The notes beneath the pieces are model-generated. The model worked only from the letters and a program-made list of their open reading frames with translations, was not told the DNA's origin and ran no database searches. Below are positions 19,489-25,703 of a stretch of DNA of 64,000 bases, one piece after another. The number at the start of each line of letters is the position of its first letter. Positions within the stretch are counted from its first letter, which is position 1. The DNA is from an uncultured Gemmatimonadales bacterium (GTDB taxonomy: Bacteria > Gemmatimonadota > Gemmatimonadetes > Gemmatimonadales > GWC2-71-9). The DNA lies in contig CAVZZO010000003.1 of NCBI GenBank assembly GCA_963779755.1, forward strand, positions 512,001 through 576,000, in the 5' to 3' direction. Both the position numbers and the translations under genes were made by a program.

Positions 19489-19623
19489 AGGAATAAGGAA
19501 CCAGGGACAAGGGACCAGGGAAGCGTGTACCAGGAGGTTGGTCCCTGGTCCCTGATCCCTGATCCCTGATCCCTGATCCCTGATCCCTGATTCCTGATTC
19601 CTGATCCCTGATTCCTGGTCCCT
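19489..19623. repeat. Heptamer GATYCCT tandem array with inverted arm
   Basis: 12 copies of G(A/G)TYCCT at 19540-19623; inverted AGG(A/G)ACC-like units at 19489-19523; lies between convergent genes. Confidence 0.9.
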
Positions 19624-20896: not shown

Positions 20897-20965
20897 TTGG
20901 GTTCCATGTGCAAGTCTCCCTTCCAGACGCATCTCCCGCCCGTCCAACAACCGGGGAGATATCCC

Positions 20966-23203
20966 ATGTGGCGCGCTGCCTGTTTCACGGCCGCCCTGGC
21001 GCTGGCGGCGGGAAGCCTGTCCGCCCAGGGCAGGATTGACGAGGTCCGGCGTCCGATCGCGGTAGCCCTGCCGCGGCCGGCCATTGTGCGCACCGCCTCG
21101 ACCGTGCGGGTCACGGTGGACGGGAGAATCGCGAAGGTGCGCGTCGAAGAGCAGTTCCGCAATGTAGGAGGCAGGATGGCGGAAGGCACCTACCTCTACC
21201 CGCTCCCGGGGGAGGCGGTGTTTTCCAATTTCTCGCTCCGCATCGGCGATCAGGACATTCGCGGCGAGATGATGCGGGCGGACGAAGCCCGGGCGGTCTA
21301 CGAGGACATCGTCCGCCGCATGCGCGACCCGGCCCTGCTGACGCTCGAAGGTCACGGCCTCATTCGCGCGCGGGTGTTCCCCATTCCGCCGGGCGAGACC
21401 CGCCAGGTGGTGCTGGAGTACACCCAGCTGCTGGCCCGTGAGGGCGACGCCCTCCGGTTCCGCTATGCCATCGGCGATCGCGGCGTCCGGCAGGCCCGGG
21501 GCGATCGGGTCGTGGATGCCGGCGGCAGCTTCGCGTTACAGGTGTTCCTGCCCGACTCGCTCGGCATCGAGACCCCCTACTCGCCGACCCACACCATCCG
21601 CACCCGACATGAGCACGGCCGGACGGTCGTCACGCTGGATCCCGAAGCCTCGGGGGATGTGGAGCTGTTTCTCCCGCTCAGCAAGGGACTGGTCGGCACC
21701 AGTCTGGTCACCCACGCCGATGCCGGCGAGCGCGGCTATTTCATGCTGCTCATTGCGCCGCCCGCCGCTGCCGCCGGCCGGCAGGTGGCCCGGGACCTGA
21801 CCCTGGTGGTGGACGTCTCCGGATCCATGTCCGGCACCAAACTGGAGCAAGCCCGCACCGCACTTCTGCAGGCGCTGGGGACACTGCGCCAGGGCGATCG
21901 CTTCCAGCTCATCGCCTTCTCCGGCGACGTGCGCCGGTTCCGCGCCGGCTATACCGCCGCCACGCCGGAGGCGCTGGCCGCGGCCCGCGAGTTCGTCACC
22001 GCGCTCGAGGCGGGCGGCGGCACCAACATCGCCGGTGCGCTCGATGCCGCCCTCGCGGCCACTCCCGACCCGGACCATCTGCCGCTGGTGGTGTTTCTCA
22101 CCGACGGGCTCCCCAGTGTCGGCGAGCGCGCGCCGGACCGGATTGCCGATGCGGCCGGCGCCAGAATCGGCGCGCAGCGGATCTTCACCGTGGGGGTGGG
22201 CCAGGACGTGAACACCTATCTGCTCGATCGCCTGGCCCGCGAAGGCCGCGGCTCGGCGGAGTACATACCGCCGGGAGGCGATGTGGAGGTGGCCGTCGGC
22301 AGCCTGATGGGCAAGATCCAGCATCCGGCGCTGGTGAATCTCCACATCGTGCGAAGCCCGGTCCGGTTCACGCAGCCCTACCCCGCCACGCTGCCCGATC
22401 TCTTCTATGGCGAGGAGCTGGTGGTGTTCGGGCGGTATCATGGCAGCGGGTCGGGGGACGTGGTGGTGGAGGGCGAGCGGAACGGCCGGACCGAGCGCTT
22501 CCGGGTGAGCGCGAAATTCCCCGAAACGGAAACCGGCAGCGAGTTCATCCCCCGGCTCTGGGCCAGCCGGCGGATCGGCGATCTTACCCGGCAGGCGCGG
22601 CTGGAAGGCGCCTCGCCCGCGATCGTCTCGGAGATCCGCGAGCTGGGGCTGCGCTACGGCATCATGACCGAATACACCAGCTACCTGGTGCTGGAGCCGG
22701 GCGCGCGGCGGGATGAGGCGGCGACCTTCATCGACGGCATCCCGGCGACCCCAGGTACCCGCAGCAACGCGTTCGCGGCGGCACCCGCGGCCCAGACCGG
22801 CGCCGTGGCATTCGAGCGAGCCCAGGCCAGTTCCAGGCTGGTCGCCACCAAGAGCCTGGACCAGGCGGATGAGGCCGCCAGGGATCGCATGCATGTCCTC
22901 ACGATCCGCGACGGCAATGCCCAGCCGGTACGCCGCGTCGGTGGCCGGATCTTTGCGCTGCGAGACAGCGTCTGGACGGATCTGGCGCACCAGGATAGCG
23001 TGCGGATAGTCGAGATCTCCCCTTTCAGCGATGCCTACTTCAGGGCGGTGCGCGCCATGCCCGAGCTGACCCCCTTCCTGGCGGCAGGCGACCGGGTCCT
23101 GATTGCCGGCCGGCGGGTGAGTATCCGGATTACACCGGGGGCGAAAGACTCATTCTCCGCCGGGGAGCTGCAGAACCTGGTGCGCGACTTCCGGGGGCAA
23201 TGA
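20966..23203 (+). CDS. Secreted VIT and vWA domain protein
   Basis: Signal peptide; VIT (EEQFRN..EGTYLYPLP); MIDAS DVSGSM, GGTNI, FLTDG; LWASRRI..YTSYLVLE. Confidence 0.92.
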   Translation: MWRAACFTAALALAAGSLSAQGRIDEVRRPIAVALPRPAIVRTASTVRVTVDGRIAKVRVEEQFRNVGGRMAEGTYLYPLPGEAVFSNFSLRIGDQDIRGEMMRADEARAVYEDIVRRMRDPALLTLEGHGLIRARVFPIPPGETRQVVLEYTQLLAREGDALRFRYAIGDRGVRQARGDRVVDAGGSFALQVFLPDSLGIETPYSPTHTIRTRHEHGRTVVTLDPEASGDVELFLPLSKGLVGTSLVTHADAGERGYFMLLIAPPAAAAGRQVARDLTLVVDVSGSMSGTKLEQARTALLQALGTLRQGDRFQLIAFSGDVRRFRAGYTAATPEALAAAREFVTALEAGGGTNIAGALDAALAATPDPDHLPLVVFLTDGLPSVGERAPDRIADAAGARIGAQRIFTVGVGQDVNTYLLDRLAREGRGSAEYIPPGGDVEVAVGSLMGKIQHPALVNLHIVRSPVRFTQPYPATLPDLFYGEELVVFGRYHGSGSGDVVVEGERNGRTERFRVSAKFPETETGSEFIPRLWASRRIGDLTRQARLEGASPAIVSEIRELGLRYGIMTEYTSYLVLEPGARRDEAATFIDGIPATPGTRSNAFAAAPAAQTGAVAFERAQASSRLVATKSLDQADEAARDRMHVLTIRDGNAQPVRRVGGRIFALRDSVWTDLAHQDSVRIVEISPFSDAYFRAVRAMPELTPFLAAGDRVLIAGRRVSIRITPGAKDSFSAGELQNLVRDFRGQ

Positions 23204-23697
23204 CCACATCGCTGGATACCTTGTATCGCGAATATCACGCGTCGCTCGTCCGCATGATCTACCGCCGGACGGGCGATGCGGATCGCGCAGAGGACCTGGC
23301 GCAGGAGGTGTTTGCCCGCGCCGCCGCCGCCCCGCCGCACAACCCGCGCCCCTGGCTCTTTGCGGTGGCGCTCAACCTGGTGCGGGAAGACGGCCGACGT
23401 TCGGTGCGGCAGGGCCGCCGGCTGCAGCTGCTCAAGGCGGAGCTGCCGCAGTCCACCCCGGCGCCGGATCAGGAATTCGATCGCAACGAAAAGACCGCCG
23501 CGGTGCGCGCGGCCCTGGCCCAGCTGACGGAGCGGGATCGCGAGGCGTTGCTGCTCAAGGCCGAAGGATTCAACTACGACGAAATCGCCGCCACACTGGG
23601 GCTGGCGAAAGGTGCGGTGGGCACCACCCTGGCGCGGGCGCGCCGGCGGCTGGTGGAAGCCTTCCGCGCGGGAGCGAAGGACCATGCAGCATCTTGA
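23200..23697 (+). CDS. ECF sigma-70 factor
   Basis: AEDLAQEVF, WLFAVALN, YDEIAATLGL..VGTTLARARRRL. Confidence 0.93.
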   Translation: MTTSLDTLYREYHASLVRMIYRRTGDADRAEDLAQEVFARAAAAPPHNPRPWLFAVALNLVREDGRRSVRQGRRLQLLKAELPQSTPAPDQEFDRNEKTAAVRAALAQLTERDREALLLKAEGFNYDEIAATLGLAKGAVGTTLARARRRLVEAFRAGAKDHAAS

Positions 23698-24829
23698 CGA
23701 CGGCGTGCTCAACGCCCTGCTCGACGGCGAGCTGACCGGCGCGGAACGCGCCGAAGCCGACCGGCACCTCGAATCCTGCCAGGAATGCCGCGACCGACTG
23801 GCGGAAGCGCGGGCGTTCATGGCGGAGGCCGATGGGCTGGTGGAGGCGCTGGAAGCGCCTCCAGCCAGGGAGAAACGGGAAACGGGAATGGGGAAGGATC
23901 GAGACCCCGGAATTCGTCCCAGGCGGATGGACTACCGTGCTCTGGCCTGGGCAGCCACCGTGGTGCTGGCCCTGGGGCTCGGCTATGTGGGCGGCGCGCG
24001 TCTGCACCTGCCCGTCTCCCCGGAAGAACAGCAGGCCCTGGAGCAGCCCCGGCGGCAGGCGGCCGATCGCGCCGTCACTCCGGAGCACCGCGAGGCAGTT
24101 CCGCCCGCGGCGCCCCAGCCGACGACCGAAAAGGGAGCAAAACAGTCGGCCGTCGAGGTCCCCTCACCCACGCCCACGGCGGAAGTACCCGCGACCGCGG
24201 AGCCGGGGCAGCCCACTCAAGGGAAAACCGCGGAAGGTGCTCCGCGGGGAGACCTCGCGGTCAGCCCCGAGTCTCCCGCCGAGACCATCCTCAGTATCGA
24301 GAAAGGCCGCCGCGACGAGTCGGCCGCCTACATCGATGGCGTTCCCACCAGCGCGGAATACCGGGGCAACGCCTTCGCTCCCGCGCCGTCCGCGGCCGCA
24401 CGGGTACTGGCGCCCCGGGACCAGCTGGCCGGTGCCGCCCCCAGCGACGGAGGGCAGTTCCGGCGCATCACCTGGGATACCGCGATCACCGTGCTGGGCG
24501 GTGCGGTTCGGCTGATCGATGGCCTGACGCCGAACGAACTGGGCATGGCGGACGGCGGTGCCGTGGGGGGGTTTGAAACCGGCCGCCCGGTGGTGCGTAT
24601 CAGGTACCTGTTCGGGGGGCGGGATACCCTCGATCTGCTCGAACAGCGGCTTTCCGCAGTGCGGCAAGAACGCAAGACAGCCATGGATTCTGCGATGGTG
24701 CTGGCCGAGAGGGCCCTCCCGGGCGGGGGCTCGGAAGTCCGCTGGCGGGCACCGGGGGGCTTCCTACTCGTGCTACGGTCTGCACTTACGGCCGAAAGGC
24801 TGGCGGAGCTGGCCGCCCGGGTCAGGTAA
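23684..24829 (+). CDS. Zinc-finger (ZAS) anti-sigma factor with TM helix and periplasmic domain
   Basis: HLESCQEC (HxxxCxxC); TM LAWAATVVLALGLGY; overlaps the sigma factor stop. Confidence 0.88.
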   Translation: MQHLDDGVLNALLDGELTGAERAEADRHLESCQECRDRLAEARAFMAEADGLVEALEAPPAREKRETGMGKDRDPGIRPRRMDYRALAWAATVVLALGLGYVGGARLHLPVSPEEQQALEQPRRQAADRAVTPEHREAVPPAAPQPTTEKGAKQSAVEVPSPTPTAEVPATAEPGQPTQGKTAEGAPRGDLAVSPESPAETILSIEKGRRDESAAYIDGVPTSAEYRGNAFAPAPSAAARVLAPRDQLAGAAPSDGGQFRRITWDTAITVLGGAVRLIDGLTPNELGMADGGAVGGFETGRPVVRIRYLFGGRDTLDLLEQRLSAVRQERKTAMDSAMVLAERALPGGGSEVRWRAPGGFLLVLRSALTAERLAELAARVR

Positions 24830-24854: not shown

Positions 24855-25124
24855 GAGCAGGATTCACGTCGGATTTATCGAATTCTCATGCAGTCCACGT
24901 TACATTGGCACGTCGATTGGAGTAGTGAAAGGGCTGGAGCGATGGGCACCGTTGCAATGCGCAAGAAACGAATTTCTCCCTCGTTTTTTCGCGGGCCGGT
25001 GATATATTGTCCCTCGCTTTCTGGCAGGCCGTGTTTCTGACGCGGCCTTCTTTGTAGGGGTTGCAGGGGCCCCCGCGTGGGGGCGGGCAGTTCAAACACC
25101 ACCTTGACGCTGGAGGCAGTTGGT

Positions 25125-25703
25125 ATGAAGCGCATCATGACGGCGGTTGCTGCTCTGGCCCTCGTCTCACTGGCTGGCGCCGGCGCGCTTAACGCGCAGA
25201 CCCGGGCGAGCTTTTTCGTGAGCGGCGGCCTCACCAATCCTCTCGGGACCTTCAACGACATCGCGAAGCTCGGGTGGAACGGCCAGGCAGGCGTGCAGTT
25301 CGCCATGCCGAGCTGGCCGGTCGCCATTCGGGTGGACGGCATGTACGGCCAGAACACCACGGACAGCGCCGTACTTCCGGCCGGCGTGACCGGCAAAACC
25401 AAGATTTTCGCTGGCACGGGCAACTTGGTCTACCAGTTCAAGACCGCCAGCAACATCAAGCCCTACATCCTGGGCGGCGGCGGCGTGGCCAATGTGAAGG
25501 GTGAGGCGACCAGCGGCGGAACCACCTCCTCGGCCTCCGAGACCAAGGCGCTGATCAACGGCGGCCTCGGCATCAAGAGCGCCATGAGCGCGGTGGATAT
25601 CGGCGTCGAGGGTCGCATCTTCGACGTCTTCACCAGTGGCAACAGCACCACCTTCATCACCGTGAACCTGGTGGTCGGGTTCGGCGGCAAGGGCGGGATG
25701 TAA
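25125..25703 (+). CDS. Outer-membrane beta-barrel protein (OmpA/OmpW-like small barrel)
   Basis: GGAGG RBS, signal peptide, IRVDGMY, KPYILGGGG. Confidence 0.85.
   Translation: MKRIMTAVAALALVSLAGAGALNAQTRASFFVSGGLTNPLGTFNDIAKLGWNGQAGVQFAMPSWPVAIRVDGMYGQNTTDSAVLPAGVTGKTKIFAGTGNLVYQFKTASNIKPYILGGGGVANVKGEATSGGTTSSASETKALINGGLGIKSAMSAVDIGVEGRIFDVFTSGNSTTFITVNLVVGFGGKGGM

Follow-up and report, generated by a model that had tools for sequence, protein, structure and literature searches.

Several arrangements connecting an extracytoplasmic function (ECF) sigma factor to events in the cell envelope are described. In the envelope-stress mechanism of the RseA-RseB-DegS and MucA-MucB systems, RseB shields the anti-sigma factor RseA from cleavage, while in the FecA-FecR-FecI system a TonB-dependent receptor (TBDR), an anti-sigma factor and an ECF sigma factor are connected. 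Within the Bacteroidetes, the group ECF255 comprises, in the portion of its description covered here, a one-helix anti-sigma factor at position +1 and a secreted vWA protein at position -1, both with TBDR/TonB-type parts borrowed as whole domains, namely TonB_C, carboxypeptidase-regulatory-like and DUF3520, together with the -35 element TATGGAT (PMC7826278). As for VIT-vWA proteins, the part of the ITIH4 report covered describes a protease-susceptible region (residues 633-713) acting as a bait, the cleavage of which leads to a protease complex dependent on the MIDAS (metal ion-dependent adhesion site) (PMC7793589). The locus considered here is a three-gene operon encoding a VIT-vWA protein, an ECF sigma factor and a zf-HC2 anti-sigma factor in an uncultured Gemmatimonadales bacterium (assembly GCA_963779755.1), where it lies in a window of 64,000 nucleotides, i.e., the whole stretch of DNA analysed. 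Linkers in the VIT-vWA protein and in the anti-sigma factor carry a similar short peptide, which was likely copied from the plug of TBDRs of the same genome; the pair is real, yet it is not a conserved docking motif but one instance of a recurrent capture.

The peptide of the VIT-vWA protein occupies residues 581-609 of its hypervariable linker (22706..22792, + strand) and that of the anti-sigma factor residues 203-237 of its linker (24290..24394, + strand), both being recognised by matches to TBDR DNA; in the latter case, the TBDR match starts six residues ahead of the start given in the initial annotation (residues 209-237). The similarity reported there holds, with both peptides in frame and identical at 17 of 29 residues (56/87 nucleotides), whereas in 150 local shuffles the top ungapped match of 29 residues reached 9-13 identities. 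In AlphaFold2 models, both peptides appear as low-confidence coil, with a predicted local distance difference test score of about 52 in the VIT-vWA protein and 43-50 in the anti-sigma factor, and both host linkers are predicted to be disordered. Among VIT-vWA proteins the linker has a median length of 26 residues and RR[DE] is enriched in it (29/211 against 4.2 in shuffled sequences); an Arg is found in three captured copies at a position where 0/20 TBDR records have one. When both proteins were searched with PF07715 (Plug, ~107 positions), no match was obtained at E<=0.1, the piece being only ~27 residues long. The segment is homologous to a plug segment, though the whole plug domain is absent from both host proteins.

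The origin in TBDR plugs, suggested initially from a pattern resembling the end of the plug domain, could be sharpened to likely donor genes. A profile made of the two copies alone, run against 36,462 six-frame open reading frames of the genome, matched two TBDRs (E 2e-12 and 3e-9), the next match being at 0.9. Both are CarboxypepD_reg-plug proteins of ~1,116 residues with Plug matched above cut-off. It is indeed a plug segment that was copied, but from the middle rather than the end of the plug, i.e., ~positions 140-175 of a 228-position TBDR N-terminal profile. The matched segment does not stop at IDGVP, the generic plug motif, and takes in a YRGNAF-type tail of these two TBDRs, which is missing from the receptors of 6 relatives examined; over GTDB, an exact degenerate pattern for this tail retrieved 6 loci, all TBDRs. 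In nucleotide sequence, the anti-sigma copy matches the TBDR at G000:C1:1154424 (G000 being this genome) with 80% identity over 74 nucleotides (E 8e-13); the VIT-vWA copy is 71% identical over 77 nucleotides to the same gene, and the two copies are 66% identical to each other over 80 nucleotides. They may stem from one capture followed by local copying, or from two captures; a direction of copying from the VIT-vWA gene to the anti-sigma gene would fit, because the Ala/Pro tail common to both resembles the native end of VIT linkers, as do the final ~6 residues of the VIT-vWA peptide. When the linkers were compared with the 3473 predicted genes of the genome, the six best non-paralog matches all corresponded to the two TBDRs, and an all-against-all search for short segments in the same gene set turned up, besides the TBDR/anti-sigma pair, for the most part family motifs of the ordinary kind, this search being insensitive enough to miss the VIT-vWA copy. 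Searches of linker DNA against the respective own genomes missed the positive control G130 (see below) and are uninformative on other donors. No match to the donor plug was found by sequence among solved structures. The two donor regions (G000:C1:1101571-1110178 and C1:1154424-1169014) each have near the TBDR a secreted protein of ~1,320 residues and a gene for 367 residues; the two 367-residue products have the same start, and the cluster is apparently duplicated.

Of the 17 residues common to the two copies, 12 are encoded by different codons, which had been taken as a sign of selection on the protein. This claim gains support from the count of shared codons, 5/17 against 8.6 expected at saturation, and from simulations, where, under a simple model assuming common origin, runs combining at least 15 identities with at most 40% shared codons made up at most 0.3% under neutrality, with dN/dS set to 1 (at most 1/300 per setting), 2% with it set to 0.5 and up to 51% with 0.1. 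As such, the codons suggest purifying selection on the peptide. Between the anti-sigma copy and the donor TBDR, 11/16 codons are shared. Reading frame was considered across 163 linker DNAs, in which profile matches of at least 7 bits all fell in the native frame (6 and 7 matches) with 0 in the other five frames, and motif patterns in 41 native-frame sequences compared with 1 in other frames; donor DNA is mostly stop-free in the non-native frames.

In the pooled set, 418 linkers, those of this genome included, were surveyed with profiles of 14 TBDR N-termini and of 13 SusC-like N-termini, yielding at E<0.05 10/418 and 6/418 matches, respectively, with one protein in both sets and 0/418 matches for reversed linkers. 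The same plug segment occurs in the anti-sigma factor P0260 (E 5e-13) and partly in the VIT-vWA protein L077, while a different plug piece occurs in the VIT-vWA protein P0111 (E 3e-7) and, more weakly, in the anti-sigma factors L092 and P0144. Whole-genome searches covered 121 genomes of the family, where 12 odd matches were cut out, and 261 genomes of the order, where 7 regions were cut out, matches in long or fully matched frames being counted as TBDRs without inspection; the carriers found other than TBDRs were exclusively VIT-vWA, anti-sigma or DUF4139-like proteins. The anti-sigma factor of G130 carries the same segment, 80% identical over 90 nucleotides to TBDRs of G130 itself, including their own tail. 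In G302, a DUF4139-like protein, encoded by a tandem paralog (L265:3-1010, G302:C4, - strand) and recognised by a match to the TBDR of its own genome, contains in its variable linker two pieces of that plug, 69% identical over 71 nucleotides and 86% over 35 nucleotides; the DUF4139-like label comes from a weak, below-cut-off Pfam match of the homolog in the genome under study. In these three cases, i.e., this genome, the G130 anti-sigma factor and the G302 protein, the copy follows the receptor of its own genome. A supposed small carrier of 214 residues in G017 proved to be a frameshifted TBDR; the TBDR ortholog at L064 (G017:C5:279000-286000) is broken by several frameshifts, probably sequencing errors. 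Another pattern, which we take to be TonB-box-like, was present in 27/211 VIT-vWA and 9/207 anti-sigma proteins, many of these carriers being kin and the pattern having been written after data inspection; it is found in 3/3473 proteins of this genome and in 0 and 1 of the reversed VIT-vWA and anti-sigma sequences, respectively. As judged from sequence comparison, the capture of receptor pieces recurs across lineages with fast turnover.

Conservation of the peptide itself is minimal, the full motif being present in 1/211 distinct VIT linkers (that of this genome) and in 2/207 anti-sigma periplasmic parts of the pooled set. It is absent from the VIT linkers of 28 relatives compared (one locus being truncated) and from the relatives' anti-sigma loci in the first ortholog survey. 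In a protein search, the anti-sigma motif region matched no protein but its own among 76 candidates of 209-667 residues, and a metagenome scan with the anti-sigma factor confirmed 0/599 candidates. By the standard of the initial annotation, absence from orthologs, as for a one-off local duplication, would speak against its reading: the motif is largely so, being absent from nearly all orthologs and decayed or lost in the nearest ones, but the captures found elsewhere speak against a one-off event.

The operon hosting the peptides is conserved among relatives. It starts with the VIT-vWA gene (20966..23203, + strand, 745 residues), the product of which matches Pfam VIT and VWA, has a signal-peptide-like N-terminus and is ITIH-like (Foldseek E 4e-35 to ITIH1; profile E 2e-62 to ITIH4), with intact MIDAS residues (D283, S285, S287, T353, D380) that are invariant in 120 homologs; the core aligned to ITIH4 ends at ~residue 613 of the latter, where the hypervariable linker begins. 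The ECF gene (23200..23697, + strand, 165 residues; Pfam Sigma70_r2 and r4_2, TIGR02937 above cut-off) overlaps both neighbours, the VIT-vWA stop at its start and the anti-sigma gene at its end. The third gene (23684..24829, + strand, 381 residues) encodes a zf-HC2 domain with residues H28, C32 and C35 invariant in 107 homologs, a hydrophobic helix (84-107), the linker with predicted disorder and a folded C-terminal domain, i.e., the layout of zinc-binding anti-sigma factors, with one membrane helix and position +1 of the ECF gene; by its sequence, it is a membrane anti-sigma factor paired with the ECF sigma factor, with putative sigma binding and regulated proteolysis. Its C-terminal domain shows a tentative resemblance to MucB/RseB, over part of the domain only (VIA-align Z 10.2, root-mean-square deviation (rmsd) 2.8, 98 aligned residues for 6jau_A; Z 8.7, rmsd 3.3, 94 aligned for 2v42_A), the next unrelated row being at Z 7.1. 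VIT-vWA matches are present in 38/41 genomes, with an ECF gene beside them in 28/30 loci and an anti-sigma gene in 26/30; the named homologs are from Gemmatimonadota, several of them Gemmatimonadales. Two paralogous loci of the genome lack the plug peptide, namely an ECF/anti-sigma pair with the same promoter type (G000:C1:1779393-1780920) and a paralog of the anti-sigma gene (C3:1277716-1278771), next to which no ECF gene is predicted. Right after the anti-sigma gene, an OMP_b-brl gene (small outer-membrane beta-barrel) is located at 25077-25703 of the window, with a weak promoter-like site. Elsewhere in the window, a short tandem repeat lies between two genes (~19500-19620), visible as the repeating translation of a spurious open reading frame, and in the assembly the small contigs C2 and C4 share near-identical genes, which is possibly a redundancy.

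Upstream of the operon, an ECF promoter is predicted at 20907..20933 (+ strand; -35 TGTGCAA, 16 nucleotides, -10 CATC), which is conserved upstream of orthologs, with TGTGCA in 69/81 of their upstream regions and a looser pattern in 81/81, and which is the top matrix match in its own genome. In four relatives, TGTGCAA-N16-C[AG]TC also precedes genes for a paralogous ECF, a PD40 lipoprotein, DUF4349, DUF4139-like proteins and an M6 peptidase, the total number of pattern matches in these relatives being merely 1.5-3 times the control count; 6/14 DUF4139-like genes checked have the pattern. The donor TBDRs were considered as conserved targets of the ECF sigma factor and dropped, the sites being weak and mostly missing in relatives, and the pattern that gave 12/3473 genes had been loosened after the donor sites were seen.

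Starting from the likely donors, the native frame, the predicted disorder of the linkers, the recurrence in other lineages and the fast turnover, the reading we favour, at a probability of roughly 0.4, is that the peptides are replaceable baits in hypervariable linkers, which mimic unfolded receptor and tune an envelope-stress ECF switch. A plug segment of the TBDRs of the cell would be copied in frame into the VIT-vWA and anti-sigma linkers, so that periplasmic proteases or chaperones handling exposed TBDR plugs might also engage both linkers. Once the anti-sigma linker was cut, the ECF sigma factor would be released and direct transcription of its operon at the conserved promoter, while the VIT-vWA protein would act like ITIH4, i.e., as a bait plus a MIDAS-dependent trap, and so dampen the output. 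Such a peptide would adjust the system without being essential to it, because most operons are without one. A broader version, which we put forward tentatively and consider on balance doubtful, is that the ECF regulon keeps its sensors current through the repeated copying of pieces of the N-termini of its own TBDRs into bait linkers of several unrelated members, namely the anti-sigma factor, the ITIH-like VIT-vWA protein and the DUF4139-like protein, the baits reporting unfolded receptors or TonB-pulled plugs and the VIT-vWA protein being ITIH4-like. Bacterial VIT-vWA proteins and their ECF modules are widespread. The repeated in-frame capture of the genome's own receptor segments at constant positions in the linkers suggests that their signal is TBDR folding or TonB activity.

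Several observations weigh against the bait reading. Co-conservation in orthologous operons, which the initial annotation proposed to look for, is not seen, and a TBDR-like motif is in neither protein in 39/63 operons. In the nearest VIT-vWA relative (P0006, 77% identical), the tail is kept and the IDG[VI]P core lost; among anti-sigma factors, the two nearest relatives are P0193, where the copy is degraded, and P0213, where none is present at that place, both as judged by eye. The capture is therefore older than those splits and subsequently decayed in the sisters. Sharing within operons is not significant once kinship is controlled (nearest-kin swaps 19:10, p 0.14; independent pairs p 0.25), and a raw test of cognate pairs (z ~8) was discarded as proof of such sharing, as kin share motifs. 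The captured pieces differ and do not overlap, which a specific recogniser would not need, and 0/17 canonical DUF4139-like linkers have a TBDR piece. Finally, scores are low for the promoter-like sites ahead of the two donor genes (7.9 and -3.4), and such sites occur upstream of 1/12 and 0/2 of the relatives' TBDRs.

Almost as likely as the bait is a near-neutral, tolerated capture, where the linkers accept nearly any insert, recombination often draws on receptor DNA, and the pieces decay without specific role. Absence from most orthologs, decay in sisters and the lack of significant sharing within operons are all expected from such passengers, as is gain or loss among close relatives: the VIT core DNA of L077 and G130 is 92% identical, yet L077 has the segment in the VIT-vWA protein and not in the anti-sigma factor, contrary to G130, and G141, from the genus of G130, has it in neither. 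Taken together, the close relatives at L236/L251 (G130:C93), L077 and L252 have the segment in the anti-sigma factor, in the VIT-vWA protein or in neither. The closeness of the anti-sigma copy to its donor, both in codons and nucleotides, is compatible with recent capture and drift, and the native-frame bias also fits a purging whereby only in-frame pieces survive, the other frames giving unsuitable Arg/Pro-rich peptides. Tolerated capture leaves unexplained, however, why the donors detected among 3473 predicted genes are TBDR N-termini only, why the same segment recurs, why the hosts belong to three classes tied to the promoter, and why the two copies share so few codons. Even if near-neutral, the case would be an unusually clear one of repeated transfer of short segments between unrelated genes.

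Rather unlikely, in our view, is the docking or motif exchange advanced in the initial annotation, taken here to mean that the vWA MIDAS or the MucB/RseB-like domain would bind the peptide in cis or in trans, with unfolded plugs competing and thereby releasing the ECF sigma factor. It would account for the same peptide in both proteins here, for RLEEVVVTG in both the VIT-vWA protein and the anti-sigma factor of L085, and for a TBDR-like motif in both proteins in 15/63 operons against one protein in 9/63; the invariant MIDAS residues, the tentatively MucB/RseB-like fold and the acidic residues in every captured piece are also in line with it. The putative binding domains are conserved, yet most operons lack the peptide or have one of a different type, G130 and L077 have it in one protein only, and it is packed on no domain in either monomer model; with the counts of the full motif and the kinship-controlled tests given above, a conserved shared docking peptide is not borne out.

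It is very unlikely that the peptides are remnants of an ancestral fusion, similar to ECF255, to an entire TBDR N-terminal module that eroded differently by lineage. An orthologous anti-sigma factor (L060:94-1833) does contain a CarboxypepD_reg-like domain in full, with a TonB-box-like strand after it, such domains are present in ECF255 anti-sigma and vWA proteins in the portion of the source covered (PMC7826278), and a single origin is not rejected for the VIT captures by approximately unbiased tests (p 0.078 and 0.226); against this, in three lineages the copies follow the receptor sequence particular to their genome, and the VIT tree needs 3 changes for the plug captures, at least 2 of them on well-supported branches. 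An assembly artefact or chance similarity is hardly credible, since, while the host proteins are singletons in databases and the one public run found (share 0.06, with no RNA run listed) leaves the motif uncovered, the frames are intact, the copies differ by 20-35% from the donors and between themselves, remnants are present in independently assembled sisters and shuffles reach at most 13/29.

Compared with known systems, a literature search, in which the ECF classification supplement was covered in part, listed nothing on short TBDR peptides placed in linkers of this kind. With FecA-FecR-FecI, the locus has in common a connection between TBDR, anti-sigma and ECF sigma factors; it has no FecR domain and no adjacent TBDR, and a copied peptide instead of a signalling domain. 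It resembles RseA-RseB-DegS and MucA-MucB in having a membrane anti-sigma factor with a disordered periplasmic part and, tentatively, a C-terminus resembling part of MucB/RseB, and a link to unfolded outer-membrane proteins is plausible; here, however, the putative RseB-like part is fused to the anti-sigma factor, and the regulator itself contains the outer-membrane-protein peptide, which is an internal plug segment rather than a C-terminal signal. With human ITIH4/ITIH1 (PDB 9c4f_I, 6fpy), as far as their description is covered, the VIT-vWA protein shares a VIT-vWA core that contains a MIDAS and, immediately after this core, a variable stretch lacking structure, and it differs by being bacterial, by its much shorter linker, by another C-terminal domain and by linker content from another gene. 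The correspondence with the ITIH4 bait is positional only, the linker starting just before region 633-713; if true, the bait reading would give bacterial VIT-vWA proteins an ITIH4-like function. The likeness to ECF255, within the part of its description covered, lies in the gene order with vWA and anti-sigma genes, in the borrowed TBDR/TonB parts and in the -10 element GCATCT, also present in the promoter of this operon (PMC7826278). Unlike ECF255, where TonB_C, carboxypeptidase-regulatory and DUF3520 domains are borrowed, the proteins of this operon have no Pfam match to these three and fall outside that group; the partner is a VIT-vWA protein, the anti-sigma factor is of the zf-HC2 type without TonB_C, the -35 element reads TGTGCAA, and what is borrowed is a short peptide, optional and with fast turnover.

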